A stretch of 28,508 nucleotides of DNA from a virus (IMGVR_UViG_3300031450_000130:1-28508); one strand, 5' to 3'; shown: positions 6,497 to 28,371, counted from the first letter of the stretch. Translations and numbers: made by a program. The notes: a model not told the origin generated them from the sequence alone.

Positions 6497-6508
6497 CGCC
6501 TGGACCCT

Positions 6509-7327: not shown

Positions 7328-7500
7328 ATACCTGCGCTAGCGCCGCTCACGCCCCACAGTACCACAACAATAACGCCATTCCGACTCCAAACCAAATATG
7401 ACGGGACTGATCGCGCTAAGCCCGCTACATCGTCCCTCGTATGGCCAGTTGCAACAATGGCGGCTGGCGTAGTCACGCAGCTTTTGGCAGGCAGGACAGT

Positions 7501-10252: not shown

Positions 10253-10382
10253 GGGTCAGTCTCCATAAGCTAGAAGCGCCAGGCTTGCGGCCCAGCAGGC
10301 TTCGACGTCTAAAGCATGTCAGTCACACCGACCGCCGGCCGCCATGTGCGCGCCAGCGCCGGGCCGGTCGCGATGCGGCGGG

Positions 10383-10799: not shown

Positions 10800-11032
10800 C
10801 CGGGTCCCTCAGGTATCCCCTCATTTTTTCCGATGTAATTTCAATGATATAGGCGTCGGCAGTGATCAATTGCTTTGCATCTCCGCCGGGGAATCCGCAC
10901 CTATCGATTTCAAGGAATGGTGACGCAGCACCGTATACATAGTAAAATTCTTCCCAATCGAATAAACATCAAATAGAATTCTCGAATTCAAAAGAATAGA
11001 ATGAGGGGATCCCTGAGGCCGGGTCCACCGCA

Positions 11033-11353
11033 TCATCGTTTCCCTAGGTTGGCGGCGATATACTTGCTGGTCGCCTCCAGCCCGATAAGGCGGTCCCGGA
11101 TCTCATTCATGTTGGTCGTCCGCATGTCCTCGCGTTTTTCCATCGCGTCCACACGTGCGTTGGCGCGGATTTCATACTGCACCTGGCGGTCGGCCTGGTT
11201 GTGGTTGGTTTCGGTCTGCGTTGCAAAAAACCATACGCCGGTGCCGCACGCGCCAACGAGCGATGCAATAAAGGCGTAGTTAAGCGTCGGGCTAGAAGTT
11301 AGCCGCACCGACGAGTCGGAAGTCGGCATATCGGTCATGGCCAGCGCCGACAC
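11033..11353 (-). CDS. Single-TM protein with coiled-coil C-terminus (holin- or i-spanin-like)
   Basis: Hydrophobic segment YAFIASLVGACGTGVWFFA followed by a charged helical region; flanked by AT-rich DNA. Confidence 0.5.
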   Translation of the reverse strand: MSALAMTDMPTSDSSVRLTSSPTLNYAFIASLVGACGTGVWFFATQTETNHNQADRQVQYEIRANARVDAMEKREDMRTTNMNEIRDRLIGLEATSKYIAANLGKR

Positions 11354-11502
11354 GCAACTACAGTCATTTGGTCAACCATGAAGTATCCTTCATCTTCTAT
11401 TCAGCTAATACAGCATTCACTAGCGAGATGATAATCCACCGATGCTGTAATTATCTTTACTTATGTGCACCGTATCAGGCTGTGACTTATGTCTTCCAAT
11501 TC

Positions 11503-14500
11503 TTAACGCTGCACAACCATAACCAGCCCCGGCGTTCCCGCCGCCCCGCTGCCCGCCGTGCCGCCCGCAACGCACGACCCAGCCCCCGATCCGCCCGAGC
11601 CGTAACCGGAGCCTGCGCCGGCACTTCCCGCCGACGCACCGCCCACCGCAGACCCGCCGGATCCTCCAGCGGCCCCAGGGCTGTAGTTGTAGGGCGGCGC
11701 GTTCGCGGCCAAGCCCGCGCCCCCAACCGCCGCCGCTACAGCGGCAGCGCCCGGCACCGTCCCGCCGATCCCGCCGCCAAACGCAGCGCTGGTGCTGACA
11801 CCCGTGCCTGCCGCCCCGCTGCCCGCGCCGCCCAATATACCGTCCCGCCCTGCGAAGCCCGCGCCGCCATTAGTACCAGCGCCATCGCCAGGACCTACGC
11901 CGAGAGCGGCCACGCTCGCCTGCGAGCCGGTCAATCCCACGCCGTTGACGCCGTTCGGCCCCCCGCCCCCGCCGCCCGTACTGCCCGCCCCGACAACGCC
12001 TCCGTTGCCGCCATTGCCGCCATAGGCATTGAGCGGCGGGAACGTCGTAATGGCAGAAGCCGCCGTGCCATTGGCGCCAGTGCCCGTAGCAGTCCCGCCG
12101 ACACCGCCAGCACCGTTCGCGGCCACAACTCCTGTTACGGTCGCTGCAACCAACGCTGCCGGCACCGTCATTCGGACGACTGCGCCCGCACCCCCGCCGG
12201 CGCCGCCCGAGCCAGCGGTGGCTGCGGCAAACACACCGCCCGCGCCACCGCCGCCGCCCGCGCCGATCAGCGTGATATCCACCAGCGCCGCCCCAGCGAG
12301 CTTGGTCCAGGTATAGCTTCCAGCCGCGGTGAAAATGTCTAGCCGCGGCAAAGCGTTCGCTGTCCCGCCCTGTAGCGCGCCGTTCAAGTATGCGCTGCCC
12401 GACACCGCCGACAACGTGCCGTCACCTGCTACCGCGAGCCCAACGCCGGGCTTCACCGCGCCGATCACCGAGCTGGTCGCTGCCGTGGTCGGGCCGGCAG
12501 GCCCAGTCGCACCCGTAGCACCCGCTGTGCCCGCGGCTCCGGCACCGCCGGTCGGACCGGGAACCGTGCTAGCGGCTCCTGGCGTGCCCGTTGCGCCAGC
12601 GGCACCCAGGATACCTTGTGTACCCTGAATGCCAGTCGCTCCTGCCGCGCCGGTGCTCCCAGTCGCTCCGATCGGGCCTTGCGCTCCGGTCGCGCCAATC
12701 GCCCCTACGTTCCCAGCCGGCCCTGTGGCGCCGGCGGCCGCCCAAAGATTCCAAGCTATTGCGTTGAACGTCGTGCCGGACGTGAAAGCGGTCAAAGCCA
12801 AATAGGTCTGGCCGCCATAGGTGACGACGTCATACGGCGCATAACTGGTCGATGCGACCCACGCACCCCGGGCGCTGAAACCCTGGCCGACTGCACCTGC
12901 GATACCAGTCGGTCCAGCGGCGCCGGTCGTTCCGGTCAGCCCTTGCGGACCTGCGACGCCGGCAGCACCCGCCGCCCCAGTAAACCCGGTTGACCCGCTG
13001 GCGCCCGTTGCACCGATTGGACCTTGCAAACCGGTGGTGCCGGCCGCACCCGCAGGTCCCGCCGGCCCGGTCGAACCCACGCCACCTGCCACACGCGCGA
13101 CCACGAAAGCCGTCGTCGCCAAGGTCGCGTCATTGCTGCCCGGCGCTGGCGTGATGCCCAGCACACCACCGGAACTCACCGACAGCGCCGTGGTGCCGCC
13201 CACTACGACCTCATACGCCGCAGAAACCGGATTATAGTGCGTGTAGGTCGTGCCAACCGAAACCTTCGCCGGGTTCGAGAAGCCATCCGGAAAGGCACTC
13301 GCGTTCAGATACGTCCGCTGCCCTGCCGCCTGCGTCCAAACAGCTTTTGTCGGTCCGCTCGCCACCGGTGTCGTGTCGATCACATTGTTCCACTTGCCCG
13401 TCGGCTGCAGCGCAACATCAACAGCCTTCGTGCCGAGCGATTGCAGGCGAAACGCTAGCCACCACGCTCCTTTCGCCCCGCCGTTGTTCGTACGGTTGAA
13501 ATTGCGCACCGTGCTGCTGACCGCAATGTCCGACCCGACCGCGCCGAACCCGCCGTCGTCATGGCTAAACTCGTCCACCTCCTGATACGTCCCGTCCGCA
13601 AACGAGAAGATGTCGCCTGAGAACGCCACCAACGCCGGGTTCGCCAGGAAATGCGTGCTTCCCGGCTTGGTACCCGCGACAAACCCGCTGACATGCAGAA
13701 AATAAGCGTCGCCCTGGCCCACATTGCCAACGTTGCTGTTGATCGCGGCAACGCCCGTGCGCCCGCCGACCTGGTTGTCGGTCGCCTGGTTCCACCCGCT
13801 CTGATTAAGCATCGACAGGCTGATCGCGCTGTTCTCGTGGTGCATGACATAGCTGGTCGCAGGCTTGGTCAGCGTGTCGTCACCCTCGATCCGGTGCTCG
13901 ATCGCCAGATGCACAGTGCTCAGATCGCCATCGAATGCCTGGACGATGTCGCCTTGATTGCCATAGCTCGTCGGCGCCGCGGACCGCAGGCTGAACCGTG
14001 GGGCGCGCTTATGACCATCCGCCGTCCGGATTTGGCCGTCGCCATCCATACGCCCGCTCAACCCCTCAGTCGCCGTCGTCACGCGTGCGACGCCCGAGGG
14101 CAAGGTCACCGCCCCCTCCCCTGCAGCGGCCCGGGCCGCCATGAGGGCGGCCGTATCATCCGTCGAATCATTCAGCGCCGCGCCGAAGTCTCGGGCATTA
14201 ACGCGATCCGCCGCGCGTGCGCCCAAGCTGCGTGCCGTGGCCGCACCGCCCGCAATCACTTGGAGCGCGGAAGCGTCCGTGATAACCGGTGCCGCCGCAC
14301 CAGCTGCGCCAGTGTCCCCTTTCAAGCCCGCCGGCCCCTGTGCACCCGGCAAACCGCGCAAGCCAATCACGCCGGTCGCGCCCGCGGCGCCCGACGGTCC
14401 CAAGGAACCCTGGGGTCCCGGGGCACCAGTGTCGCCCTGGATGCCCTGCAAGCCCGGCGTGCCAAGCCCGCCGCCGGATGGCGCCGAGATCACGCCCCCT

Positions 14501-14892
14501 GAATCGATCTGCACCCCCACCCCGGCCGAAAACAGCCGCCGTAGTGCCGTCGCCGGCATCCGCCGTGGCGCCGACCCGCTGTTGATCACCACCTCGTCGC
14601 CCACCAGCAGCCCTGGCGTCGCTGGAAACGCAAGGTGGTCCGCTCCCGTAGCCGCCAGTCCAACGCCCGACACCGCAAGCCCGACGCCAACCGCCACCGG
14701 CTCCGGCTCCGGGCCGCCAACTGACGCCGACACTCGCCCCAGCAGCGCGCCCGGCGCCAGCGTGATGGACGGCTGCGTGCCCGCCAGCAGCAATCCTACC
14801 TTGGCACTCCGGGTAAGGCTGCCTTGGCTCAAAGGCAGCTCGTCTGTCGCTGCCACCCGCGTAGCCAGCGGAAGTTGCTTGATCGTCGGCAT
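11503..14892 (-). CDS. Collagen-like tail fibre / receptor-binding protein (1129 aa)
   Basis: Three Gly-X-Y blocks, tailspike neck motif VNARDFGA...DDTAAL, CBM5/12-like W...TSY.PYDVVTYGGQTY segment, Gly-rich C-terminal domain. Confidence 0.8.
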   Translation of the reverse strand: MPTIKQLPLATRVAATDELPLSQGSLTRSAKVGLLLAGTQPSITLAPGALLGRVSASVGGPEPEPVAVGVGLAVSGVGLAATGADHLAFPATPGLLVGDEVVINSGSAPRRMPATALRRLFSAGVGVQIDSGGVISAPSGGGLGTPGLQGIQGDTGAPGPQGSLGPSGAAGATGVIGLRGLPGAQGPAGLKGDTGAAGAAAPVITDASALQVIAGGAATARSLGARAADRVNARDFGAALNDSTDDTAALMAARAAAGEGAVTLPSGVARVTTATEGLSGRMDGDGQIRTADGHKRAPRFSLRSAAPTSYGNQGDIVQAFDGDLSTVHLAIEHRIEGDDTLTKPATSYVMHHENSAISLSMLNQSGWNQATDNQVGGRTGVAAINSNVGNVGQGDAYFLHVSGFVAGTKPGSTHFLANPALVAFSGDIFSFADGTYQEVDEFSHDDGGFGAVGSDIAVSSTVRNFNRTNNGGAKGAWWLAFRLQSLGTKAVDVALQPTGKWNNVIDTTPVASGPTKAVWTQAAGQRTYLNASAFPDGFSNPAKVSVGTTYTHYNPVSAAYEVVVGGTTALSVSSGGVLGITPAPGSNDATLATTAFVVARVAGGVGSTGPAGPAGAAGTTGLQGPIGATGASGSTGFTGAAGAAGVAGPQGLTGTTGAAGPTGIAGAVGQGFSARGAWVASTSYAPYDVVTYGGQTYLALTAFTSGTTFNAIAWNLWAAAGATGPAGNVGAIGATGAQGPIGATGSTGAAGATGIQGTQGILGAAGATGTPGAASTVPGPTGGAGAAGTAGATGATGPAGPTTAATSSVIGAVKPGVGLAVAGDGTLSAVSGSAYLNGALQGGTANALPRLDIFTAAGSYTWTKLAGAALVDITLIGAGGGGGAGGVFAAATAGSGGAGGGAGAVVRMTVPAALVAATVTGVVAANGAGGVGGTATGTGANGTAASAITTFPPLNAYGGNGGNGGVVGAGSTGGGGGGPNGVNGVGLTGSQASVAALGVGPGDGAGTNGGAGFAGRDGILGGAGSGAAGTGVSTSAAFGGGIGGTVPGAAAVAAAVGGAGLAANAPPYNYSPGAAGGSGGSAVGGASAGSAGAGSGYGSGGSGAGSCVAGGTAGSGAAGTPGLVMVVQR
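12488..14463 (-). repeat. Collagen Gly-X-Y triplet blocks (~14290-14463, ~12880-13077, ~12488-12732)
   Basis: For example GTPGLQGIQGDTGAPGPQG.. and GSTGPAGPAGAAGTTGLQG.. in the translation; each block is roughly 20 triplets. Confidence 0.85.
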
Positions 14893-14940
14893 TTTTGTCC
14901 CCGATCTACTGTCTCATTGCGAGTAGATACTACTGCTGAT

Positions 14941-17481
14941 CTATCCCAGTGCCGCCCAACCCACAGCGTCTAACCCGCTCCGCTTCAGCCACAGCGTCGA
15001 TCCCACGCCGCCATCCAGGTTCCGGTAGTCGGACCCAGGCGGCGCGTTCACAACGCCCTCCGGACTGCCGCGGCCCAGCGCGCTGACAAAGCCCCAAGGC
15101 TCCGCGTCCGACCCCACCCGGACCCGCCCAGGTCCGGAAGGCCGCAGCGTCAGGTCTCCCCTGGCCGTACGCAGCACTAAGCTGCCATCCCCGGTTGGCG
15201 CCAGGTAATCGGCCGGTGCAAAGGCAGCGGCTTGCCAACCGCCCCAAGTTCCCACCCAATCAATCGCTGTCGCCGCAGGAACCAAGATGTCCGTGCCGGT
15301 CCAATTGTCCTGAAATGGAGCGCTGCCCACCCGCTTGAACCGCACGGCGCAATTGCAGTGCAGCCGCAACCGTCGCTCCTCGGTCACTGGCAAGCCAATC
15401 ACTGCCACAGCCGTGGCATCCTGGCCGTCCCCGGTGATCGCCACCGTGGCGCCCGCCGCATACCCGCTGCCGCCACTCACCAGGCTGATGCCCAGCACCG
15501 CGCCATCCCGCACATAGGCGATCGCCTGCGCCCCGCTGCCCGCGCCTGGAAGCGTTGCAGAAATCACGACGCTCGCTCGCCTATAACCGCTGCCGCCCGC
15601 AAGCACGCGCACGAAACCGACCTGACCCGCCGTAGCGGCTTGGTGTGCACCCATGACGCTCTGCACGCCTCGCCCAGCCGAAGTCACCATCGCCTCGTCC
15701 AGCATGTCTGGAACCTGAATCTGCTGTATTGCACCCGTGTCGACCGGGTTGCAGATCATTCGCACCTGGTTGTTCCAGCTATTGTCCCGCACCAGAACGC
15801 TGTCCGTGTGCGCCCATAATGCCTGCGACGGACTGCTGCCATCGCCGCCAAAGAAGGCATTCCGCACCACCGACACACCTTGCGGCGCATCGAGCAAATA
15901 CACTCCGCCGCCCGAGCCATCCCTCAGCACGATGCGGTTGCCCTCAATCGCGAGCCCCTGGCACGCAATACCGAAATTCTGCCCGCGCCCATCTGTCTCG
16001 ACGTTATAGGCCGTGATGCCCCAACCATTGCCCAATAACTGATTATCCGCGACCCGCACGCCACGGCTGCCGCCCGGGTTGATGCCGACCGAACAGCCCT
16101 GCACCAAGTTGCTGGACACGTCGCAATCGACGCACCCTCCCGCGTCGATTCCAAAATAGCTCGGCCCCGACACGATATTCCCAACGATCCGCGACTGCAT
16201 GGCGTTGGCAAGGATACCATCGCCATTGGCAGAAACCTCGTTGTCCGCTACCTGAAGTGCGAGCCCGGCGACCGCGATTCCATAGGACGTGTTGTCGTGG
16301 CAGGCATTGCCCGCCACGATCACGCTTATTGCGTCCGGATGCGCATGCCCCCACCGTGGCGGCTCGGCATTGATCTCATTGAAGTTGCCAACCGAGATGC
16401 CGCGGTTATTGCCCCAGGCCTCGCACCCCAACACCCATACGTGCCGAACCACCTGTCGGAAAGCCGTGTCGTTGAAGTCAATGCAGATGCCATATCCGCC
16501 ATTGCCATGCGCCACGCATCCCTCGATCAACGCGCCCGAAACTGCCTGGATCCAAATCCCATGCACCTGGTTGTCGCGCGCCTCGCACCCCAGCACGCGA
16601 TGTCGGCTCGGCGAGCCCGAAACACCGTCCCGCCCTTGGATCACCAACCCGCTTCCAAGGTTTGCCCCCAGCGCACCTTGGAACACGCAACTATCAAATA
16701 ACGTTTGCACGCACGCCGGCGTCACCAGCACGCCCCAGCTATCTCCCGGCACCTGCCCGGCGTCGAACGAAACTCCCAACGCCGTAAACGCCGCGCCCGC
16801 GATGCTGATGAACGCCCCCGTGGCCAGCGCACCGCCAACCGTTAGCCGCCGCAAGACCGTTCGGCCGGGCACGCCGATCAGTGTCGCCGGGCTGCTGATC
16901 GTCCACTGCCCCCTCAAGGCATAAACATGCGGCCCCAGCCGCACTGGCCGCCCGCTAGCGACCGCTCAATCCAGCGCCGCCGTATCGTCGACGACGCCGT
17001 CGCCCACCGCGCCGAACGCCTCGACCGGCATGGCATCTGCCGTCCAGTCTGCCAGGCTTCGCGCAAACCCGCCCGGCGCCTGCACGAGTTGCGCCGAAAG
17101 ATCGATCCCAGCCACGCCGCCCAGTCCGGCCATGAACGCGCCATACGACACCGCCGTGTCCCGCCCGCCCTGCGCCACGCCGACCAAATCTCCAGCCGCC
17201 AGGGCGACGCCGCCCGGTAGCCCCGCCACGCTGAATGGCGCCGCCGCCGACAGCGTACCATCGATCAAACGCAGGTTGGCGCCCACACCAATCCGCTCTG
17301 CTCCGCCAATCCCCGGACTGCTCCGCCCCAGCAGCACCCCCGCCTGCACCGCCAGCGTCGGCTGCATCCCCGCCAAGAACTGCGCCCGTGTCACGCGCCG
17401 CGCGAGGCCGCCCTGGCTGATTGGCAACAGGTCGCCATCAGCCGCCGCCAAAGCGAGCGGCAGGTTCTTAATCGTCGGCAT
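14941..17481 (-). pseudogene. Tailspike / right-handed beta-helix (pectate-lyase-like) protein with one in-frame TGA
   Basis: ORFs 16966-17481 and 14941-16944 share a frame: FGAVGDGVVDDTAALD*AVASGRPVRLGP. Asn/Gly beta-helix repeats; C-terminal GSPEGVV.APPGS.Y....GG....W.K.SG....GW motif. Confidence 0.8.
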
Positions 17482-17485
17482 GACC

Positions 17486-17971
17486 CTAACTCCCCAACAG
17501 CAACGGATTGCCGAACTCGTCCAAGAGTTCCGACCCGCTCTCCGTTTGCAGCGCCTCCGACACCCAAGGCGCCGACGCCAGCGCCAGCACCGGCAGCAGC
17601 ACCGACCGCGATAGCACTCGCCCGGCCTGCGTCCCGATCGTCAGCGTCACGCTATAAGTCGTCCCAACCTGCCCGCCGGCGAGCCATAACACCGCCCGCG
17701 CGCCATCCGCCGCCGCCGAAGCCAGTGACAAATCTCCAGGGTTCGCCGGGCTGATTGCTACGTCGAGCGTCGCGACCGCATCGCCATCGTTCCCGCTCAA
17801 CGCCGGGGTAATGTCGAACTGATAGTCGAGCACGTCAGCCGGGTCCTTCGCCGGCCACGCCAGCAGTGCCGGAGCCATGGCCGGCGCACCACGCGGCCCC
17901 GGCACGAACCCATCCAACACCAGCACCCGCGCGGCACTGGGCTTATAAAGGTGAACCGCATTAGTTGCCAT
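17486..17971 (-). CDS. Phage fibre-tail adaptor-like protein
   Basis: WPAKDPADVLDYQFD..VLWLAGGQ.GTTY.VT..I.T..GR..SRSV; located between fibre genes. Confidence 0.6.
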   Translation of the reverse strand: MATNAVHLYKPSAARVLVLDGFVPGPRGAPAMAPALLAWPAKDPADVLDYQFDITPALSGNDGDAVATLDVAISPANPGDLSLASAAADGARAVLWLAGGQVGTTYSVTLTIGTQAGRVLSRSVLLPVLALASAPWVSEALQTESGSELLDEFGNPLLLGS

Positions 17972-18001
17972 TTTGTTCCCCAAAAAACGCAGCGACTAAA
18001 G

Positions 18002-18033
18002 CCCTCTCTCCCCGGGAGAGGGTTGAGTGAGGG
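18002..18033. repeat. BoxC/REP-like intergenic repeat, copy 1
   Basis: CCCTCTCTCCCCGGGAGAGGG-TTGAGTGAGGG hairpin plus tail. Confidence 0.65.
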
Positions 18034-18070
18034 CCGCTTGAGAGACCCGCCTAACCAATTTTCAAGTCAT

Positions 18071-19291
18071 CTAATACTCGACAATAACCAGCCCATTCGC
18101 CCCCGTGCCGCGATTCGTGTTCGGCCCAAACCCGCCCGCAGCGCCTGATCCCGCCGCCTGCCCCTGCGCCGGTGATCCGCCAAGGAACGCGCTGCGCCCG
18201 CCGCCGCCGAAGGCGCTGGCCCCGCCCGCCCCGCCCGGCAGCGCCGCCGCGAGCGGTCCATCCCCGCCTGGTCCGCCAAACAGCAACAATGTACCGACTG
18301 TCCCGCGCCCGCCATTGCCGCCCGCGCTGTCCGGATTGCCCGAACGCCCGCCAAACCCGTTCGAGGCAGCAACCAGTGTCCCAAACGACGTTGAGCCGCC
18401 CACCACCCCATTATACCGCGGCGCGCCGCCGGCCCCGCCGACACCGACCGTCACGACCACCACGCCCCCGGGCTCGACCGGCACGATCGCTTCGGCGTAA
18501 CCGCCGGCGCCACCGCCGCCCCCGGTATAATCGGCGCCGCCGCCGCCGCCGGCACCCACCAGCCTTACCTTCGCCGACCGCACATCCGGCGGCGCAACCC
18601 AAATGGTGTTCTGGGGAAACACCTCCTGCCGGCTGAACCCTGGAAGCAATGCCGGTAATTTAAACGGCACGAACGGGCCGCCCGGTGAAACCGCAATGTC
18701 CACCGCCTGGGTCGCCTGGCCGAAATACGTCATCACCGAATACAGCCCGACCCACCCAGCGTCCGCCACCGGCGGAAACCGACCGCCAACAATTCGTGGC
18801 TCGCCTGGCTTTGCGGCCAACGCAATCCGCACCACGCGTTGCGTATTCTGCGCCGCGCCGCTATTGAGTGGCCCGCTCCACGCCACGGCAGGGTCAGCCG
18901 CGTTGAAATATGGCAGCGCCACCGGCCCGGTATCATACTCGATGATGGCCGCCTGAATCAGCCAGCAAATCGCATGGTCGCCGTCCGCCGGCCCATGGAT
19001 CAGCACCGCCGTGTTCGACGCATTATACCCGATCTTCACCAGCGGCGTAGCGTCTGCCGCCACCGACCCAAATGGCCGCGCGTCGGTGACATACAGCGTC
19101 GACAGGCTTCCCGGCCCAACGACCACCCCATATCCCGTCACTGCCGGCACGCAAGCCAGTCCGTCCGCCACCGTTCCCGTCCCGAGCACGCACTGCGCCA
19201 GCAAACCGACCGTCGTCATCATGTTCCGCTGCATTTGCAGCAGGTCGGTGTCGAGTGGAATGGAGCCGGGATAGACGATTTGTCGATCCAT
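18071..19291 (-). CDS. Tail fibre protein, baseplate-proximal, Gly-rich C-terminal domain
   Basis: MDRQIVYPGSIPLDTDLL N-terminus, follows the J/I-like wedge genes, ends in VRLVGAGGGGG..GANGLVIVEY. Confidence 0.75.
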   Translation of the reverse strand: MDRQIVYPGSIPLDTDLLQMQRNMMTTVGLLAQCVLGTGTVADGLACVPAVTGYGVVVGPGSLSTLYVTDARPFGSVAADATPLVKIGYNASNTAVLIHGPADGDHAICWLIQAAIIEYDTGPVALPYFNAADPAVAWSGPLNSGAAQNTQRVVRIALAAKPGEPRIVGGRFPPVADAGWVGLYSVMTYFGQATQAVDIAVSPGGPFVPFKLPALLPGFSRQEVFPQNTIWVAPPDVRSAKVRLVGAGGGGGADYTGGGGGAGGYAEAIVPVEPGGVVVVTVGVGGAGGAPRYNGVVGGSTSFGTLVAASNGFGGRSGNPDSAGGNGGRGTVGTLLLFGGPGGDGPLAAALPGGAGGASAFGGGGRSAFLGGSPAQGQAAGSGAAGGFGPNTNRGTGANGLVIVEY

Positions 19292-19318
19292 CAGTCACTC
19301 TCCAACTAAATTGTTTTG

Positions 19319-19351
19319 CCCCTCCACCTAGGGAGGAGGTCAAGGTGAGGG
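19319..19351. repeat. BoxC/REP-like intergenic repeat, copy 2 (degenerate)
   Basis: CCCCTCCACCTAGGGAGGAGGTCAAGGTGAGGG. Confidence 0.5.
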
Positions 19352-19377
19352 CGACGGCAAACCTACTCAGGATCGCC

Positions 19378-19938
19378 CTAACCGACAAACCGTACCCAAG
19401 CCACGCCTCCCGCCGGCAACGCCTCCACCAGCGCCGCCGTCACCGCCGCATCCGGCGTCGCACTCCGCTTCAACACCACCAAGCACTCCAGCGGCATCGC
19501 CAGCGATCCCCAGCCCCCCGCAACTCCCCAGCCTAGTCCTGGCCCGCCATAAACTCCTGTATCCCGCGGCTGCGCCGGCTCGAAAACCCGCATCGCGCCC
19601 GCACCCTCCTCCACTGCCGCCGCCAGCAGCGCAGCCCGTGTCGCCCGGACCCGATGCAGCACCCGCCCAATCCGCGCACGAAACGTCTCGTCCGCCTCCC
19701 CCGCCCGCCGCGGCAGCCGCCCGCCAAACAGGTCTTGCGCCGAAAGATCGAGAAACCCCGACGTCGCCGTCAGCAGCCGCGACTGCACCCGCACCGTGCC
19801 GAGCAGCGCATATAATCCAGCCCACGCGGCGCCGAGCCCCGTCAGCACCCCATCCAATACCGGCGCGACATCGGCAAACCACCGGTTTGGCAACGCCAGC
19901 CTCAATCGCAACCGCATGTCATCCTGATCGCCGGTCAT
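19378..19938 (-). CDS. Baseplate wedge protein (gpI-like position)
   Basis: LP.RWF, R..TAT..FLD....D.FG..LPRR.GE.D..FR.RI; ATGA-coupled to the baseplate J gene. Confidence 0.7.
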   Translation of the reverse strand: MTGDQDDMRLRLRLALPNRWFADVAPVLDGVLTGLGAAWAGLYALLGTVRVQSRLLTATSGFLDLSAQDLFGGRLPRRAGEADETFRARIGRVLHRVRATRAALLAAAVEEGAGAMRVFEPAQPRDTGVYGGPGLGWGVAGGWGSLAMPLECLVVLKRSATPDAAVTAALVEALPAGGVAWVRFVG

Positions 19939-21049
19939 GCCGACACCGTCATCGACCGTAGCCGCACGACGCCATAACGTCCCGGCGTCAGGTCATCGGC
20001 CAAACCATTCAATGTCACATCCGAAACCCGCGTCACCCCGGGATCGGCGTCATGCGCCCGTTGGATCACCCGCGACACCACCAGCCCGGCTCCAATCGGC
20101 AGCGCCGCCACATACGCTCCCACCGCCGCCCGCACCGCCGCCAAAGCCGCAGCAGGTCCAGCCACCTTCAGCGCAACATCCACCAGCACCACCAGCGGCG
20201 CCCGCACGCTGAACGTGCTGCCTATAGGCCGGATTGCCTCGATCGCCGCTCCCGCCCGCGCCAGCAGCGCTGGTGTTGCCCCGCCCGAACCATCGTCGAT
20301 GGTGACCGTGTGAAGTGCCCCGCTCGAACCGCGCCAGCCGCATCCATCCGCTCCGCAACGGCGAACGACAATCCCTGCTGCAGCCCCCGAATAGCAAACT
20401 CGACCGCGCCCACCGTCGCCCGCGTCCGGCTATCGATGAATCCGCCAAAACGCACCCGCAGCGCCGCATCGGCTTCCGCATCCAATCCGCCCGCCGCCGC
20501 CGCTTCGTTCGTCACCGCGTCCACTCCCGGGATGGCGCTGGCCAACAGCCGCATCTCCCCAGCCCGTACGTTACCCGCCCGACCAGCCGCCAGTGCCCTC
20601 ACCGGAGCCACGACCGCGACATGATCGCCCGACAGCAGGTATCCCGCCCCCGTCCAGGCTGGATGCCCTGCATCCGCCAGTACGGTAAACGACAGCGCGT
20701 CAGTCCCCGTCCCCGTCTTCACCAAAGCTCCTACCGGCACCACCGAACTCAACCCCGTGGTGGTCCGGCTGAACGTCGCCCACCCTACCGCCGGAATGCC
20801 CGGCAACCGCGTCAAGCCAAAATCTGCCACCCAGCTATCCAGGTCCAAACCCGCACTGGTTGCCGCCCGGGTGGTCGCCAGCACCTCGACGATCAGCCAC
20901 TGCACCCACAGGCCAATGCTGGCATTCGCCTCCAGCACCGCCCGCAGCACGCTCCCGACCGACAGGTCGATCAGCCCGCGCGCCGCCCCCTGCACCGCCG
21001 CCGCCTGCGTCCGCACCAGCGCCGTGAAATCCTGCAACGGAAGCTGCAT
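19935..21049 (-). pseudogene. Baseplate J/gp47-family protein, frameshifted
   Basis: GSVLRAVLEA, LDSW.ADFGL.RLP, G..GNV, GG.DAE.DA.LR.RF. An AC duplication at ~20307-20312 (TTC ACACG GTC) breaks GHFTVTIDDGSG; the repaired length is ~370 aa. Confidence 0.85.
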
Positions 21050-21052
21050 GGT

Positions 21053-21421
21053 CTATTTCCCCATTTCGATGGAAAGCGTCCGCGCCTCCGCCGTATCTGC
21101 GTCGGCATACCGAATCTGCACCGACAAGGTGCCGCCAGGATCGGACTGCACGTCGATGACCGGCTCTGGCACTCGCGCCACCGCCAATTCCAGCAGCATC
21201 TGCATCCGGATCACCGCCTGGATCGCCGCCGCATCAGCCGGCTCTCCCACAAACCGCGCCAAACCCGCTCCATAGCCCGGTTGCCAGACATAATCCCCAG
21301 GATTAGTCAGCAGCCGCCGCAATACCCGCTCCGTCCCCAAGGCCGGTCCCGTCACAGTAACAAAGTCCCCCGTCGGCCCCACGAACAAGTCCCCAGCCCA
21401 GCCCTGATGCAAATCCGCCAA
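21053..21421 (-). CDS. Baseplate gpW/gp25-like protein
   Basis: GGAGGAGG RBS then TTG: MADLHQGWAGDL..RVLRRLLTNPGDYVWQPGYGAGL. Confidence 0.75.
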   Translation of the reverse strand: MADLHQGWAGDLFVGPTGDFVTVTGPALGTERVLRRLLTNPGDYVWQPGYGAGLARFVGEPADAAAIQAVIRMQMLLELAVARVPEPVIDVQSDPGGTLSVQIRYADADTAEARTLSIEMGK

Positions 21422-21448
21422 ACCACCCTCCTCCAAAGCGGCAATCTC

Positions 21449-21482
21449 CCCCTCTCCCTCCGGGAAAAGGCCAAGGTGAGGG
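21449..21482. repeat. BoxC/REP-like intergenic repeat, copy 3
   Basis: CCCCTCTCCCTCCGGGAAAAGGCCAAGGTGAGGG, plus an inverted half-copy CCCTCACCCAA at 21531-21541. Confidence 0.6.
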
Positions 21483-21514
21483 CGCTCGAACAACTCAAAG
21501 TTGCTCGCGGCAAC

Positions 21515-22054
21515 TCACCCCTGCTTCCCACCCTCACCCAAATCCTTAGGCTCCGGCGGTGCCGTGATCCCACCCTGCGGGTCAGCATGTCGATGTCGGT
21601 TATAGCTCTGCCGCAGCTGATCCAATGACCCACGTCGGTCAAAGACCTCGCCCTCGATATGCAAATCGCCTCGCACCGAAACCGTCCCGTCATTCAGCAA
21701 ACGCAAATAACTGCCGCTTCGATGCGTCAGCCATAACTCGCCGACAGGTGTTGCCGGCATCGCCGCCAGCGCGCTCCAGGCCCGCCCGGCAATGACCCCA
21801 TGCTCCGCATCACCCTCCTGCGGCAGCACCATCACCTGGTCTCCAGGCGAAGGCGGGCACGAAATCCCCCACCCGGCCCCCACCCAAGGGCTGAGCACCG
21901 GCAGCCACCCCGTCAAAACTCCATCCGGCTGTAATTGCACCCGCGCCGTCCCGGCCGCCGGATCAACCGACGTCACCACCCCGAACCGAGGCTGCCCCGC
22001 CGCCGCATCCTGTGCTCCCGTATGCGCCTTGATCGCGTTCAGAAACCGGTCCAT
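21515..22054 (-). CDS. Baseplate spike, gpV family
   Basis: G.V.SVDP....RV, TGWLP, PSPGDQV.V, C-terminal H-x-H (HRH) metal-binding tip. ATG 22054 overlaps the upstream stop (TGATG). Confidence 0.88.
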   Translation of the reverse strand: MDRFLNAIKAHTGAQDAAAGQPRFGVVTSVDPAAGTARVQLQPDGVLTGWLPVLSPWVGAGWGISCPPSPGDQVMVLPQEGDAEHGVIAGRAWSALAAMPATPVGELWLTHRSGSYLRLLNDGTVSVRGDLHIEGEVFDRRGSLDQLRQSYNRHRHADPQGGITAPPEPKDLGEGGKQG

Positions 22055-23082
22055 CAGCGTCCCCCGTCCGGCCCGAGCGGCACAGCCTGCAGGCACAGCC
22101 GTTGGGTGAAACCCCGCCGCACATCCAAATGCCGGCTCAGCTCCGCCACTGCGTAACTCCGGTCCCAATCCGCTCCGGCACCCAGCAATGCCACCCGGGT
22201 CCGCGCCGTCATCTCAAGCTCCCCCGGCATCGTCGCCTGCGCCGTCCACTCATGCCGCAGCAGATCCGCCAACGCCCACTCCGCCGCCACCTGGGCCTGT
22301 CCGGCATTGAGGTTCGGCCGAACCAACTCATGCCGCCACGTCGCCGCGCCACGCCCAACCCCGCGCCGCCCAGCTTCCCGACGCGCTGTATGCTGAACCG
22401 CCACCCCAGCCCGAGTGCCCCAGCTCCGCACCATCACCTCAATCGCCCGCGACAGCCCCACCTGGTGCTCAAGCTCCAGCCCTAGGCAGTCCTCAACGCG
22501 AAGCACGACCAGCCCATCCCCGGTCGGCGGCGCAAACCGCAGCCGCTCACCCTCCATGAACAGGTCAAATCCCTCCTGACCCGCCAGAAATGCGAGCAAG
22601 TCCCACTCGGTCATCGCTCGCGCGAACTGCCCCAGCGTCAGCCGGTCGTGCTCGTTCTGGTAATACCGCCCAACCGGCGTCGACGTCGGCGTCGCATCCG
22701 CCACCAGCCCGTGCCGCCCGGCAATAACCTCGACAATCTCGCTCGAGGTCCGGTTGGCAAACGTCTCCCCCACCCGCGCCTCGATCAGCCCGGACGACAG
22801 ATCCCGCCCCTCGATCTCCAGCACGCCCCGGATCGGATCAAATGAGACCGTATCCGCGGTCCCCAGCACCAGGCTGGCCCACCTGTCACCGAACCCAACC
22901 TGCACATCCAACCGCAACCCCGGCGCTTGCAGTCCGGCCATATCCGCAACCCGCGCCGCAAACCGCACTCGAAATCGATCCGCCGCCAAATGATTGTTGG
23001 CGAACACGTCCACCGCCAGCACACCCGCCAGCGCCGACCCATCCGCCAGGACCTGCGCCCGCGGCGCTCTAGCTCCGCTCAA
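22054..23082 (-). CDS. Baseplate hub, phage late-control gpD-like protein
   Basis: 342 aa; I.GRD.S..LI, F.N.TSSEIV..IA.RHGL, EWDLL.FLA.QEGF; upstream of the spike gene. Confidence 0.78.
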   Translation of the reverse strand: MSGARAPRAQVLADGSALAGVLAVDVFANNHLAADRFRVRFAARVADMAGLQAPGLRLDVQVGFGDRWASLVLGTADTVSFDPIRGVLEIEGRDLSSGLIEARVGETFANRTSSEIVEVIAGRHGLVADATPTSTPVGRYYQNEHDRLTLGQFARAMTEWDLLAFLAGQEGFDLFMEGERLRFAPPTGDGLVVLRVEDCLGLELEHQVGLSRAIEVMVRSWGTRAGVAVQHTARREAGRRGVGRGAATWRHELVRPNLNAGQAQVAAEWALADLLRHEWTAQATMPGELEMTARTRVALLGAGADWDRSYAVAELSRHLDVRRGFTQRLCLQAVPLGPDGGR

Positions 23083-23254
23083 TGCCGCCTCCAGCCGCCG
23101 GGTCCACCGTCGGCAGCTTCAAAGTAACAAGCCCCGCCAGCACCGGATCAGACAGCCCGTTGATCTTGGCGATCCGGTTCCACTGCGTCGCATCACCCAA
23201 ATGCGCCAGTGCCAGCCGAAACAGGTCACCTCCCGCCACGGTCACAATATTCAC
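23069..23254 (-). CDS. Tail protein X / LysM-like baseplate protein
   Basis: GGDLFRLA..HLGDATQW.RIA.INGL.DP..L.LP, 61 aa. Confidence 0.75.
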   Translation of the reverse strand: MNIVTVAGGDLFRLALAHLGDATQWNRIAKINGLSDPVLAGLVTLKLPTVDPAAGGGIERS

Positions 23255-23810
23255 GTTTTGTTCTCCAAACTCGTCGTATAGGCCCGCGCCGTGGCCAGCC
23301 GGGCCAACAACCCCGCAGCCGCCACGACATCCGACAAAGCCGCTGACGCAAGGCCAATCCCAGCCGCCGCCATCTCGCTCTCAAGCTCCGGCCCCGCCCC
23401 CAGCGCCGCCGCCTCAGCCAGCGTCGCCAATGCCGGTAGCGTCTCGACCGCCGCCAAGTCCCCATCGATAGCACCGTGCATGAAATCCGATACGGCACCC
23501 ACCACGGATTGGCGCTGTCCGCCTCAAAACGCGAAATGATCACAGTGTAACGCCACCCATCCCACCCGAGTGGCAGCGCCTGCCCTGCCCGCCGCAACCG
23601 GTCCAGCTGCCGGACTCGCTCCGCCGCGCCGATCCCCGAAATCATCCCCGACCAAGCCAGCTCCCGATCATCCGGCCCCATCGCATCCACGATCCGCGTC
23701 CCGCCCGGCAACGTATGCACCGTCAGCCGCTGCCGCCCGCCCATCGTGATCCGCTCCGGCACCTCGAACCCCTGGAATGCGACCGGCCCCAATACCGGCG
23801 GCGATCCCAT
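23251..23810 (-). pseudogene. Tail tube initiator (gpU-like), frameshifted
   Basis: FEVPE.I..GG.Q.L.VH.LPGG.R.VDAMG. One base is missing near 23465-23468 (TCG [G]AT GGG GAC); adding it joins ORF 23251-23505 into ~186 aa. Confidence 0.7.
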
Positions 23811-24911
23811 CACGACGCTCCCGACGGCGTCCATGCCGCAGCCTGCCGCGGATCAAACCGCGTCGTCCCAGCCGGAGGCCGAGCCGCGTCGCGGCCCATC
23901 CGATCCGCCAGCCAATGCCCCACCAGCCGTCCATCGAGCATTACGTCCCCTCCACCCTTGCCGCCATCCTGCGCCTGGGGTGGCGGCACCGCCGGGCTGC
24001 CCGGCAACAGCTCGCGCCCCGGCGGCATTGCTTGTCCTTCCAGCCTCCCCGCAATGGGCGCCGCGGGCGCCAGCGGGACTGCAACCATCGACGGAACCCG
24101 TGGTGGCGGCGCATTCGGCCGCTGATGCCTCCCGCGCTCCACATTCCGCATCGGCTCCATCGCACCGATCGGCGCACCTGGCGCCACAGGCGCTACCGCA
24201 GCCGCGCGCTGCGTTTTCATCACCGGAGCCGCCCGCGCCATTGGCGCTGCGGCCCGCATCGCTTCCGCTGCCGCCGGCGTAATCGGCGCGACCGGAATTG
24301 CAATCGCCGCCCCCCTGGCCGGTCCCGCCCCCGAAGTCTGCCCGGGCGCGGCCGGCACACGGTCCGCCACTGCCTGCGGCACGAGCAGAGCCGCCGCCCG
24401 CACCGGCGCCGCCGCCGGAGCCGCAACCGCCGCCGCAACCCGCGTCGCCACCGGAACTCCAGCCCAGCGCGCCGCCACCCCCGGCGTCGCCCCGACCAGC
24501 GCCGCCATCACCGCAACCGGAGCCGCCTGCGCCGGCATCGCCGCTGTCCTTACCACTAACGGCGCCACCGCCGGCCGCTCAAAATCCGCCGTTGGTGCCG
24601 TGACCGCAATCCCCGAAGACAACGCCGCCCGAGCCGCCACTGGCACGCCCGCCGCGGCCGGCTCCGCCATCGCTGCAACCGCCTCCACGATTGTAGGCAC
24701 CTAGAATTGCCCCAGCCGCCGCGACCGCCTGCGCCGCCCCCTGCGCCGCGGCTGTCAGCGCCACGGCTGTCGGCACCTCCAGCCGACCCGCCGACACCGT
24801 CGCCGCCACCGCCCGGTCCAGCATTCCCAGCCCCTGCGCGATCACCCGCAGCCCGGCGCTTACCCCATCCTGCAGCGCCAATTCAATGCCGATCTCATAC
24901 GCGTCGATCAT
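23810..24911 (-). pseudogene. Short tape-measure-like protein, frameshifted
   Basis: N-terminus MIDAYEIGIELALQDGVSAGL and C-terminus GDVMLDGRLVG..GTTRFDP in the tape-measure position. Frame change at ~24701 (CTA G GTG). Repaired length ~366 aa, Ala/Pro/Val-rich. Confidence 0.65.
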
Positions 24912-24934
24912 GCTCAGCCCCTAAGATGCTTAGC

Positions 24935-25240
24935 TCAACGGAGCTGCATAGAGTCTGGGCCACGCACCTCTGACCAGACTGCGACATTTGAGATATCAGA
25001 TAAAATCTTTAAGGCAGTATCTTTGTTAAGCTTAACATCTTCTGGTAATGTAACTACGAATCCTGTATTACCGCTTTCCCAGACAACATTCTGCTCAATT
25101 ATCATTTTTTGCATACCTCTCTCACGAACAAAAATGAATATATGCCAATGTTCATTAGGTAATCGATAGCATCCTTCAACAAAAGACATATCATTTTCCA
25201 TGACAAGATCAAATGTTAATTCTGCTACTGCAACTTCCAT
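24935..25240 (-). CDS. Low-GC hypothetical protein, candidate orphan immunity protein
   Basis: AT-rich 84-101 aa ORF at the end of the toxin/immunity array; no recognisable motif. Confidence 0.55.
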   Translation of the reverse strand: MEVAVAELTFDLVMENDMSFVEGCYRLPNEHWHIFIFVRERGMQKMIIEQNVVWESGNTGFVVTLPEDVKLNKDTALKILSDISNVAVWSEVRGPDSMQLR

Positions 25241-25347
25241 GATTATGGAGCAAATTCCTAATTGGACTTCGCGTATTCTTTGAGTAAAACTAATATATTA
25301 ATGTATCATGAGATACAAGTAGGATTCCTATAGTCCTTCTCGGCCGG

Positions 25348-25701
25348 TCACACGGCGTCCAACACCCCACGATCGAAATAGAACGTGACCTCTGGGCCGT
25401 AGCCTTCATACGTTATAACCCGATATCTCGGGTCCAAATCGAAAAGAGTTTTGCCCCAATCGTGGACAATCTCGTTTGCAAAACTTTCCAGTTCGCCTTC
25501 ATCCTGTACATCAGGAAAAAAGTCATACATGTGTATGTGGTTCAGCAATCTCTCAAGATCAGCAGGTGACTCTGCCTCCCGTTCGATCCACTGATCAATG
25601 ACGTCTGTGTCTGTGTTGCGCGCGTCGAGGTGCAATCCCCTATACACTTTTATCTCAAGGTGCTTCAGTCGCTGTAATGTTCTCTGATCTTCTGATGTCA
25701 T
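25348..25701 (-). CDS. Putative immunity protein for the Ntox24-like toxin
   Basis: 117 aa, acidic, E..NH.H.YD.F..W...L..YGPEVTF; ATGA overlap with the toxin stop. Confidence 0.7.
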   Translation of the reverse strand: MTSEDQRTLQRLKHLEIKVYRGLHLDARNTDTDVIDQWIEREAESPADLERLLNHIHMYDFFPDVQDEGELESFANEIVHDWGKTLFDLDPRYRVITYEGYGPEVTFYFDRGVLDAV

Positions 25702-26222
25702 GGGACTTCTCTCGGAGTCGCTCGTCTCGGAAAGCTCGGGGTTCCCACGAACACCTCTCCCAATGTTGAAAGATTACGAGCAAACTCGGTGACGTGTGGT
25801 GTGGGAACGCCCCCATGAGACGCACCTATCGTATCAACTCTGTAAGCGGGGAAGCCATCCGCCGCCCAAACTTGGTAGCTTGTGATAGTGCCATTGCTGT
25901 CCGCGCGATACATCACAATATTCGGCGTTTGGGGCGTCGTTGGGAAGCGTCCCCGGACCTGTATCCCGATGTTCTTGACATCGCTCCCGAGAACCCTTGG
26001 GACCAACGGCCGGCCCGGGTTGGCAAACGTGTTCACCGGCCCCTGCGGCGTCGGCCCGCCGTTGCGCGCGCCTGCCAACGCCCGCCCGAGCGCGTCAACC
26101 TCGGCCTGCCTCGGCCCGAAACCTTCCGGTCCCGTGACATGCTGTTTCTGGAGTTCAGGGTTCCTGAGGTCGATCTCTTCTAACCGGGAGCGCATCGAGT
26201 TGTAGAGCTCTAGCCGGAACAA
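25698..26222 (-). CDS. Polymorphic toxin C-terminal cassette, Ntox24-like predicted RNase
   Basis: ITSYQVW..DG...RVDTIGASHGGVPTPHV..R.ATP.EVP fits the Y/H/H pattern of toxin type 24. No clear RBS or start, so probably an orphan C-terminal module. Confidence 0.7.
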   Translation of the reverse strand: MFRLELYNSMRSRLEEIDLRNPELQKQHVTGPEGFGPRQAEVDALGRALAGARNGGPTPQGPVNTFANPGRPLVPRVLGSDVKNIGIQVRGRFPTTPQTPNIVMYRADSNGTITSYQVWAADGFPAYRVDTIGASHGGVPTPHVTEFARNLSTLGEVFVGTPSFPRRATPREVP

Positions 26223-26300
26223 CTCGGAATCGCTCAGTGCATGTCCACCCGTCCGTTGGCTAGGGGTCCGGATGTCTAGGCGCGCTTATCGCAACCCCCT

Positions 26301-26735
26301 TCAACCATCATCGTCGTCGGGGATGCGATACAGGTCGATGTCCAGATCGGCATCAAGGTTCGCCATGAACTTGATGGCGCGTTTGGACACGTAAAATGGT
26401 GGTCTTTCGTCGCCAACGATGTATAGGGCAACCAACATCCGGAACTCGCCGCCGAAGTCTAGCGCTTTGAGCTGCTCCTCAACCCCTGCGAGCTGAGCAA
26501 CGACGTCGTCGATCTGCTCGGTAACTTTGTGAGTGACCGGCAGCCTGCTTTTTATCTCCCAAGCACTGCTCCGCCGCTTCATGGCCGGGGCCGGCCCGAC
26601 ATCCCCCTTGCACCATGACTTGGTCGGCGTCAGGCCGAGCATCGCGGAGATCACGTCGGGATCGCAGGAAAAACCACAATAGTAAAATTCTACATGGAAT
26701 TTGCTTTTAAATATAAACTGGCGATCCAACGTCAT
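26301..26735 (-). CDS. DUF4279-like putative immunity protein
   Basis: DPD.IS..LGL.PT..W.KGD..SSAW...LDIDLY pattern; ATGA overlap with the toxin stop. Confidence 0.75.
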   Translation of the reverse strand: MTLDRQFIFKSKFHVEFYYCGFSCDPDVISAMLGLTPTKSWCKGDVGPAPAMKRRSSAWEIKSRLPVTHKVTEQIDDVVAQLAGVEEQLKALDFGGEFRMLVALYIVGDERPPFYVSKRAIKFMANLDADLDIDLYRIPDDDDG

Positions 26736-27376
26736 TTGAAGTCCCTTACATTGAACCCAGTCGGAGTGGGTTCACCCACACCATCCTTATCACCAACATA
26801 GATATTGCCCTTTTTATCTTTATACAGATCAACTCCGGTGCCATATATATCTTTCGTGCTATGAGCATCGTCATCTGTCTTGCCGAGCTTCCTTATCTCT
26901 CCATCCGAGAGTTTCTTCAAGTCCTTTAACTTTGGCGGCTCATCGGATTTCTCAGCATGAAGGACAGTCCCGAGGGCTTTCCGAGCGGCCTCAAGCCCCT
27001 CCAAAGTTAATCTGACAAAGTCTTCGTTCTCAGGCGCTCCCGGTAAAAAGACCGGTGGTAACGCCAATGGCTCATTCCGCCCAATGGCAAACTGAATTTG
27101 GTGGACTGCACCGCCATCGACACTCTAATCGCTCAGCGTCCCAGCCGTCTCCGAGCCGACGCTCTGCAGACGTGAATGTCCAACGCTTTCATTACCCGGC
27201 TGAGAAATGCCCTCCCCAGGTTCGGCTACGTCTTGCAGGACCTCCAACCTCGGCGTCCACCCGCGCAGCGGCCGCATCCGCCACATCCGTCCGTCATACC
27301 CACGCGGCGCCGGCGCCGGCCATTCGATCCGCAGCACCAGCGTGTCCACACCATACGGCAGCGCGTCGCCCGTCAC
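26732..27376 (-). pseudogene. Polymorphic toxin with Ntox33-like C-terminal domain, interrupted by an in-frame TAG
   Basis: C-terminus KLSDGEI.KL...DAHSTK..DLYKDKKGNIYV..K.G.GEP..TG.N has DxHxxK and DxxxD. It is in frame with GTG 27376 through the TAG at 27125-27127 (codon 84 of ~214). Confidence 0.72.
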
Positions 27377-27597
27377 GCCGTCCACCGCATCGCTCCCCAA
27401 TCCCAAACTCGTCCGTCCAACTCGCCCAGCACAACGATCCACGCCGTCCGCTCGGCCGCGTCCAGCGAAAACGCCACGTCGAATGACACCCCATTCCTAA
27501 CAAGAAACAAACTATCTACCAGGTCGGCGCTCCGCGTCAGTGCCCGCAGCGCAGCCGGGCCGCAATCCCCCGGCCCGGCTGCGCCTACAGGTTTCCC
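27373..27597 (-). CDS. -1 frame extension of the tail assembly chaperone (gpGT-like)
   Basis: No start of its own. The -1 frame reads GKPVG..ADLVDSLFLVRNGVSFDVAFSLD..ER.AW....GELDG..WDW..MRW. Fusion product ~184 aa. Confidence 0.75.
   Translation of the reverse strand, partial: GKPVGAAGPGDCGPAALRALTRSADLVDSLFLVRNGVSFDVAFSLDAAERTAWIVVLGELDGRVWDWGAMRWTA
27549..27597 (-). promoter_or_regulatory. Programmed -1 ribosomal frameshift signal
   Basis: G_GGA_AAC slippery heptamer (27597-27591), 6-nt spacer containing the 0-frame TAG, then a perfect 14-bp stem GCGCAGCCGGGCCG/CGGCCCGGCTGCGC with an 8-nt loop. Confidence 0.85.
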
Positions 27598-27926
27598 GGG
27601 GTGGCCGCCGCCAATCCCTCGCCCACGGCCGCCAGCCCCACGTCGCCCAGCCGCGCCACCAGCGCCTCCACTTGCGCTTCGTTCGCCGGCGCCGGCATCG
27701 GCATCGGCACGTCGTCGATCCCCACCACGCAAAACGCCAGCATGGTATAGCCGACATACCGGTCATTACTGGACAGCACCGGTCCTAGCGCCTTGAACAG
27801 CCGCAGCCGGTCCAGCGCTCCCGGCCGCCGAAACTGCAGCGTGCGCCCTGTCGCGTCAGTGACCGCGAGCGCCGCACCGGCCTCCGCCACGATACGCTGC
27901 GTCGGCGTGATAACCGTCGGCTCCAT
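27585..27926 (-). CDS. Tail assembly chaperone (gpG-like)
   Basis: 113 aa; D..GR.L..RRP..LD.LRLFKA.G..IDDVP...P...QVE.LV.RLGD.G; directly after the tube gene and ending in a slippery site. Confidence 0.75.
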   Translation of the reverse strand: MEPTVITPTQRIVAEAGAALAVTDATGRTLQFRRPGALDRLRLFKALGPVLSSNDRYVGYTMLAFCVVGIDDVPMPMPAPANEAQVEALVARLGDVGLAAVGEGLAAATPGNL

Positions 27927-28371
27927 CAAATCCGCTTCCGCCGGCTAGCGAAAAGTCCAATCGCTGCCTTACCGCAGCATCGCCCTTCCATTGCCCGGCA
28001 TTCGTCAGCTTGAACACCGTCCCCTCGAACTGATACGTGCTCACGCTCCCATCCGTCTCGCTCACATACTGATACAGCGTGCTTCCCTGCAGCTCACCCG
28101 AACTATGCCAAGCCTGCTCCAGCGAATTGATGAAATCGTCCGCCGCCGAGTTGCCCCGGTCCAGCTCGAAATGTCCCTCCCACCCCTTCGGCAGTTCCGC
28201 CGCCAAGTGCACGCCATCCAGCCGGTCGATCCGGATCGGATGCGTCACCTGCCGGCTCTCGAACGACGTCACATGCGTCAGGTCCACCCGCCCGCCCTGG
28301 CCTCCGGCGCCCTTCGGCGCAATCACCACCAACTGGCAATCCCGCCCCGTTGAAAAAGTATTCGCAGGCAT
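27926..28371 (-). CDS. Tail tube protein (one-base loss near the C-terminus)
   Basis: GGAG RBS, MPANTFSTGRD..LP.GW.G.F..DR..YQY..E.DGS.STYQF. Adding one T to the T4 run at 27951-27954 gives LDFFASRRKRI* with TGATG coupling to the chaperone (~148 aa). Confidence 0.72.

Follow-up and report, generated by a model that had tools for sequence, protein, structure and literature searches.

The stretch of viral DNA studied here (the window, 28,508 nt) carries a predicted toxin-immunity block of 2442 nt at 24935-27376 on the minus strand, which is flanked by the T part of a tail assembly chaperone and by a tape-measure gene (Table 1). The tube gene, the chaperone G part with its GGGAAAC site, the T part and then the tape-measure gene stand in the same order in phages Raharianne and phiKX1, which bears out the placement between tail chaperone and tape-measure genes given in the earlier note. 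The start of the lead ORF overlaps the chaperone stop as GTGA, and both toxin/partner pairs are joined by ATGA overlaps, as that note had described. The block had also been called lower in GC; this holds for the whole block (0.527 versus 0.675 in the downstream tail genes) and for its orphan ORF, but not for the leader region, where GC reaches 0.667. The reading of the surroundings as a tail operon was not upheld, since in relatives the element also has terminase, portal and capsid genes and is therefore not a tail-only operon.

Table 1. Features of the window around and within the toxin-immunity block.
Feature	Position	Strand	Evidence or remark
Tail tube gene	27856..28371	-	start 28371; frameshifted near 3' end in window copy
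Tail assembly chaperone, G part	27585..27926	-	GGGAAAC slippery-like site 27591-27597
Chaperone T part, -1 frame	27373..27540	-	TGA stop overlaps toxin GTG start
Lead toxin gene: leader, linker, Ntox33	26732..27376	-	TAG at 27125-27127
Conserved leader core PYGVDTLVLRI...RMWRMRP, proposed loading tag	27266..27358	-	alignments
Ntox33 domain, predicted nuclease, DxHxxK and DxxxD	26747..26917	-	Pfam PF15533, E 9e-10
DUF4279 immunity-type gene	26301..26735	-	Pfam, E 3e-20; ATGA overlap with toxin 1
Headless cassette 2: shared linker 26007-26240 and Ntox24 C-terminus	25698..26240	-	
Ntox24 immunity gene, likely	25348..25701	-	ATGA overlap with cassette 2
Orphan low-GC ORF	24935..25240	-	GC 0.379
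Short tape-measure gene, ~370 aa when whole	23810..24911	-	frameshifted, split into two ORFs
Tube initiator/LysM, hub, spike, wedge, baseplate J, fibres, GH108 lysin	9710..23834	-	Pfam and PHROG
Host genes lptD, surA, ksgA, GGDEF-EAL (right flank)	2913..8997	+	Pfam

The tube gene belongs to PHROG 12993, matches phage genes at the tube position after the sheath at 30-37% and the intact tube of genome G001 at 95% over residues 1-140 of 148; its structure model has a pLDDT of 70. Chaperone G was assigned by position and by conservation in 101 of 107 loci, and we take its site with the T part to work as a frameshift site, as in lambda gpG/gpGT. The tape-measure start, MIDAYEIGI, is conserved and is common to Raharianne gene 41. 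Elsewhere in the window, a PIN toxin with a Phd/YefM antitoxin forms a type II TA pair at the left end (279-952), and an NAD(P)H-hydrate dehydratase gene is broken into two ORFs (1006-1894). Two large fibre genes at 11503-17523 have a common N-terminal segment, one with collagen repeats and a CBM-like match and the other with a beta-helix, and fibre content differs between relatives of the element. At the other end, summed contig depth over 28383-28508 exceeds 1000 in three runs, which suggests a high-copy repeat or an IS end inserted between sheath and tube.

A Pfam search of the five ORFs of the block, as the earlier note had proposed, named Ntox33, DUF4279 and Ntox24 and, together with the ORF layout, agreed with the content described there (Ntox33 with DUF4279, Ntox24 with a partner, and one orphan ORF); no Pfam family was found for 25348-25701 or 24935-25240. 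The Ntox33 motif is listed in PMC3482391, and the pairing of Ntox33 with DUF4279 and its immunity role have been reported (PMC13304343, PMC9424270). The pairing thus stands, but the frame that opens with VTGDALPYG.. meets the TAG after 83 codons, so that the window encodes no full toxin 1. An intact leader-linker-Ntox33 relative (P0020) is 45% identical over 214 columns. Toxin 2, whose Ntox24 domain (PF15529, E 1e-11, in 25698-26222) and ATGA-linked partner were likewise borne out, is a headless cassette and not a full toxin, because its frame begins near 26240 with neither a leader nor a start ahead of an internal TTG and matches P0013, a full leader-linker-Ntox24 protein, at 85% identity over residues 120-299 of the latter. 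Its linker DNA is common to loci L068, L163 and L160. A homologue of its partner gene also follows Ntox24 in L001 and is an orphan in L102; an Atlas match leads to PM0498-like clusters, one of them with an SMI1/KNR4 fusion, and serves as a lead only. The orphan ORF belongs to a real protein family (74 matches, two of them the window's own sequence), no toxin was found upstream of four homologous loci, and it is likely to be an orphan immunity gene.

The window copy is decaying, since toxin 1 has an in-frame TAG and four tail genes (tube, tape measure, tube initiator and baseplate J) are frameshifted; these frameshifts, which the first reading had missed, bring the lesions to five, and those near 23460 and 20310 fall among the particle genes downstream of the tape measure. 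Assembly error is not supported as their cause: Logan contigs of run X1, which is possibly the source of the window, match 23000-28246 with no differing letters. Recoding or read-through of the stop is not supported either, given that the same TAG occurs in L149, that in L151 a sense codon takes its place and the frame ends at a different, earlier stop, and that the other lesions are frameshifts; the tube end is intact in L151. With the lead toxin and four tail genes broken, the array of the window now likely serves only as an immunity reserve.

Sister strains exchange cassette 2 exactly at the linker end. In three of the four sequencing runs examined, a contig departs from the window at 26007, which is the end of the shared linker and the swap point, and rejoins it at 24932 with 955 other letters between. 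The swap allele has a depth of 22.8 in X1, compared with 118 for the window allele, and also occurs in runs X4 and X5 from two other studies, in both of which three of the frameshift sites of the window, and one other position in the tape measure, show single-base indels relative to it. Headless C-terminal cassettes exchanged by recombination are represented here by cassette 2 and its swap at 26007. Several cassettes lie in each of L068 and L102, where repeats of tube, chaperone or leader DNA precede them. As side observations, tandem tube/chaperone/leader repeats, each followed by a different toxin-immunity pair, lie at L102:2145-5006, L069:2964-3690 and L068:13720-15384; pentapeptide-repeat genes lie within toxin-immunity arrays at L069:2280-2912 and L207:826-1356; and in G003 (L104) a tube fragment and the tape measure have no chaperone region between them, owing to a deletion. 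A chance insertion of low-GC DNA into a decaying prophage, without a shared function, could also account for the block, an explanation that suits the five lesions and the lack of a toxin at this slot in most distant relatives. We consider it very improbable, as intact leader-Ntox33 and leader-Ntox24 proteins exist, which largely refutes it, and as multi-cassette arrays recur at the slot and are exchanged at the linker end.

The toxins are headed by a 35-residue leader with the motif PYGxDT...RMRP near the N-terminus. When 8000 candidates were scored with a leader profile, 47 proteins were retrieved, a set that counts the fragment from the window itself and some of the sequences used to train the profile. 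A toxin-type Pfam domain was present in 13 of the 46 leader proteins scanned (nine AHH, Ntox24, Ntox33 and two lysozymes), and CdiA_C, colicin DNase and pesticin were further C-termini from leader loci. Clustering of 64 leader sequences by C-terminus gave 30 groups, a number that is too high because it counts frameshifted tails. Other C-termini were labelled GH19-like, Ntox44-like, REase-5-like and ParB-like on the basis of motifs, and have no Pfam match. The genes directly 3' of leader toxins encode DUF4279, colicin immunity and Imm11 proteins, with LprI nearby, while many partners belong to no family; the leader flags many unnamed toxin and immunity domains. Toxin genes of this kind show the sequence-level hallmarks of polymorphic toxins, namely a conserved N-terminus with variable toxin C-termini, a downstream immunity gene and exchanged orphan cassettes.

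Leader proteins occupy four slots in the element, between chaperone and tape measure, between spike and wedge, between scaffold and capsid, and after the terminase (the last in L163, and after the scaffold in L136, neither in the window). Other copies stand alone, surrounded by housekeeping genes, with Imm11 following or LprI nearby. The toxin had been assigned to the tail module, which is right for the chaperone/tape-measure slot, but the three other slots and the stand-alone copies mean that the leader is not tied to that module. Among the family genomes, with 15 candidates scored per genome, the leader was matched in 20 of 401, of which 14 were at E<=1e-5; the six weak matches were dropped, and those inspected had no motif. 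Of the 14 genomes, ten have a tube match; in another two the leader adjoins genes of the element, and no tube match was found in the leader-positive drafts G161 and G371. An order-level search added only two weak matches among 401 genomes. No match to the leader was found in Pfam, PHROG, NCBIfam or PDB, nor in phage or plasmid records, and comparison with gp10 and with the start of the tape measure showed no homology to either. In L156:2644-9457 and L159:1401-4333, leader toxins with a doubled PYGxDT adjoin a tyrosine recombinase gene and small ORFs including LprI, and this region is possibly a mobile toxin island.

The leader is under purifying selection at the protein level. Its core has a pN/pS of 0.20 among close pairs, in a set chosen by protein profile whose pairs are not independent, and the ratio over residues 3-37 is 0.75 for all pairs. 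Third codon positions are the most variable in the core, and a role as a DNA element only was rejected on this ground. The same constraint bears on the explanation that the pairs are intracellular addiction or abortive-infection modules that keep the element, with the leader being only an anchor for translational coupling and recombination. Ntox24 is indeed known in toxin-antitoxin systems too (PMC3482391), the leader overlaps the chaperone stop, its copies are often preceded by upstream gene fragments and the lead toxins are frequently broken, all as this explanation would have it. It is nevertheless quite unlikely in our judgement, because the leader is constrained at the amino-acid level, muramidase C-termini with LprI inhibitors would have no cytoplasmic target, and orphan cassettes and orphan immunity genes suit competition between strains.

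The relatives of the element belong to the Acetobacteraceae. In the single-contig genome G001, the head end consists of a small ORF, terminase, portal-position gene, scaffold and capsid, which are followed by sheath, tube, chaperone, toxins, tape measure, baseplate, fibres and lysin, with host genes on both sides. No integrase, repressor, replication gene or AAA ATPase was found among 111 ORFs in and around the element of four genomes (G001, G003, G004 and G005; E<=1e-5 for the G001 element ORFs, heuristic ORF choice). The right flank of the window is the same in G001 and G003 (the latter with no surA match) and differs in G004 and G005, and the tube gene is present in 196 of 401 family genomes, mostly as one match. 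Among cultured phages, the closest are the Raharianne-like phages of Ralstonia and phiKX1/2 of Komagataeibacter, whose capsids show 50-56% identity. Judged by gene content, the element fits a domesticated, GTA-like head-tail particle: the gene transfer agents RcGTA and BaGTA are likewise host-kept head-tail clusters with no integrase or replication genes and mostly one copy per genome (PMC9662315), whereas the tail here is myovirus-like and related to Rahariannevirus. Toxin cargo is not described for RcGTA/BaGTA in the available text of PMC9662315, and common phage-like regions in Acetobacteraceae genomes are given no function in that of PMC12142844.

The slot between chaperone and tape measure was compared in 107 tube loci (partly redundant), 101 with both chaperone parts and 100 with a readable slot. 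In 54 of the 100 readable slots it holds an HK97-gp10-like gene (PF04883, TIGR01725) and no toxin, and gp10 also fills it in Raharianne and phiKX1. A gp10-like gene was found in 50 of 63 short-loop tube loci, the leader in none and neither in 13, whereas 17 of the 29 long-loop loci have the leader, none gp10 and 12 neither; the eight unclassified loci have gp10 (four), the leader (two) or neither (two). The leader thus occupies the slot of the HK97-gp10 tail-completion gene of ancestral phages and distant copies, and the mutual exclusivity of leader and gp10 there may simply reflect ancestry. A conserved N-terminus with variable C-termini and immunity genes at this position, as the earlier note had anticipated, was found in close relatives and across the 47 proteins, but the wider family mostly has toxin-free gp10 there. 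Among 19 leader loci, 12 have only a peptide of 36-74 aa and seven have longer inserts; toxin-type ORFs with partners stand at the slot in L001, L068, L069, L102, L017 and L070, and L013 is degenerate. The leader is dispensable, given that 12 of the 19 leader loci are toxin-free and 12 of the 29 long-loop loci have neither carrier. As further observations, the tube of the leader-bearing clade (28337-28357 region; L001-L014, L068-L083) has a Gly-rich insertion of 6-7 residues, GAGGQG, with low model confidence at residues 21-25 and no counterpart in distant elements, and L054/L055 and L060, from distant elements, have transposase-like insertions (by eye) after chaperone T in the same slot.

In the leader clade, gp10 is either relocated between scaffold and capsid or missing, with no gp10 match in G001. 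G002, G003 and G004 have eight, seven and five gp10 matches, respectively, some of which are pieces of one gene and which mostly lie away from the element. In 15 gp10 regions, several are fused to Colicin_E5, Ntox37 or lysozyme domains and others are broken; Imm42 or NTF2-fold immunity genes lie downstream of the fusions. Such fusions with immunity partners are scattered over the chromosomes (L206-L220; G002, G003, G004) and also occur between scaffold and capsid (L003/L005:6-1455). The C-terminus of one gp10 protein is 60% identical to a G001 leader toxin over 180 aa, their partners are 56% identical over 162 aa, and another gp10 toxin has its linker in common with toxin 1 of the window. Because the same C-terminus and partner occur behind either head and a linker is in common, leader and gp10 are interchangeable toxin heads, though not homologous, and the gp10-fused toxins form a second unlisted polymorphic toxin class.

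We propose, with a probability of roughly 0.55, that polymorphic toxins are loaded through the leader into the tail of the GTA-like particle and injected into neighbours. Loading into the tube or with the tape measure had been suggested in the earlier note, and we keep it as a proposal. Full-length toxins would be packed into the particle tail by their N-terminal 35-residue leader, which, like gp10, might sit at the top of the tail channel beside the tape-measure N-termini and tow the toxin. The tail of phage 80alpha contains one gp10-like protein, which caps the DNA, pairs a beta-hairpin with the N-termini of three tape-measure proteins and is presumed to be ejected with them (PMC11661146); the gp10-like protein of SPP1 is most likely not ejected according to the authors (PMC11099176). 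The lysin of the element would release the particles, the fibres would bind the target, and contraction would eject the toxin together with the tape measure into neighbouring bacteria, where kin with the immunity gene would survive. Stand-alone leader-toxin and gp10-toxin genes might provide cargo in trans. More tentatively, one Acetobacteraceae clade may have made the GTA-like particle a toxin syringe, with gp10 and the leader that replaces it tagging a swappable toxin library.

The toxins could instead be soluble proteins resembling bacteriocins, or could leave the cell by a different route (T6SS, vesicles, lysis), with the leader being an uptake or export signal and the cluster serving them only in shared induction and lysis. 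Stand-alone copies are distant from the element, a T6SS is present in G003, G004 and G314, some C-termini are of colicin type, and bacteriocins are frequently near tailocin cassettes (PMC5576092). However, TssC, VgrG, VirB4 and the partner transporter ShlB were not matched in G001 (five leader matches) or in the draft G002 (the ShlB control itself gave a match in 0 of 14), and Pfam finds no receptor or translocation domain in leader proteins. The leader, with a strand-like hydrophobic motif and a basic motif, has a median charge of +4 and is only moderately hydrophobic, and the same toxin is also fused to the virion protein gp10. This alternative is therefore held to be unlikely. Loading into the particle tail is the preferred reading, and the muramidase toxins near LprI inhibitors fit an attack from outside the cell.

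Among known systems, MuF toxins are similar in having a virion-associated N-terminal domain, variable toxin C-termini and a small immunity gene in a phage structural module, and Ntox24 is among them (PMC5576092; PMC3482391). The carrier here is instead an unnamed 35-aa leader or HK97-gp10, the main slot lies between chaperone and tape measure, and the element has no integrase, is widespread in one family and comes with headless cassettes and dispersed copies; the MuF domain has no Pfam match in the window ORFs or the 46 leader proteins. In CDI, Rhs and Maf arrays, a lead toxin is followed by immunity and headless C-terminal cassettes. The same arrangement with common linkers is found here, together with toxin domains that occur in such arrays (CdiA_C, Ntox24, Ntox33 and AHH; PMC3482391), but the toxins are only 130-460 aa long, and in the window ORFs and the 46 leader proteins Pfam finds neither FHA, Rhs and MafB regions nor any other trafficking domain known so far. 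The effectors of eCIS/PVC also belong to a contractile tail, into whose tube varied cargo is proposed to be loaded by a short peptide at the N-terminus (PMC9054023), and their cargo genes, like those of the tape-measure-related effectors of Sle1, may sit apart from structural genes (PMC9054023, PMC13277306). Unlike them, the element here keeps terminase, portal-position gene and capsid, in G001 and others, and so is not headless; most toxins have adjacent immunity genes, the closest phages are Raharianne and phiKX1, no DUF4157 was found, and a scan of the ORFs of the G001 element at E<=1e-5 showed no AAA ATPase. HK97-gp10-like tail completion proteins are the family both of the gene replaced by the leader and of the second carrier (PMC11661146, PMC11099176); the known ones are short and stand-alone, whereas many here have toxin C-termini and immunity partners and are chromosome-scattered.

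No description of this system or of gp10-fused toxins was found in the literature searched, outside which lie survey supplements and most subscription journals, and the part of bioRxiv 10.1101/2021.10.19.465003 that lists trafficking domains includes neither leader nor gp10. The polymorphic toxin family found here, linked to a domesticated phage-like particle, is real and apparently undescribed, and the window holds a broken copy of it. The family has two unlisted carriers, a short leader and the HK97-gp10 tail-completion protein, both tied to a phage-like cluster that occurs in about half of the sampled Acetobacteraceae genomes and for which no described function was found. The ejection of a tail-completion protein into a target cell and the delivery of particle-borne toxins such as MuF become testable in these bacteria. 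If loading is true, polymorphic toxins would be delivered along a new route, the channel through which a domesticated virion ejects DNA, and such a virion would be a weapon instead of, or besides, a gene shuttle.
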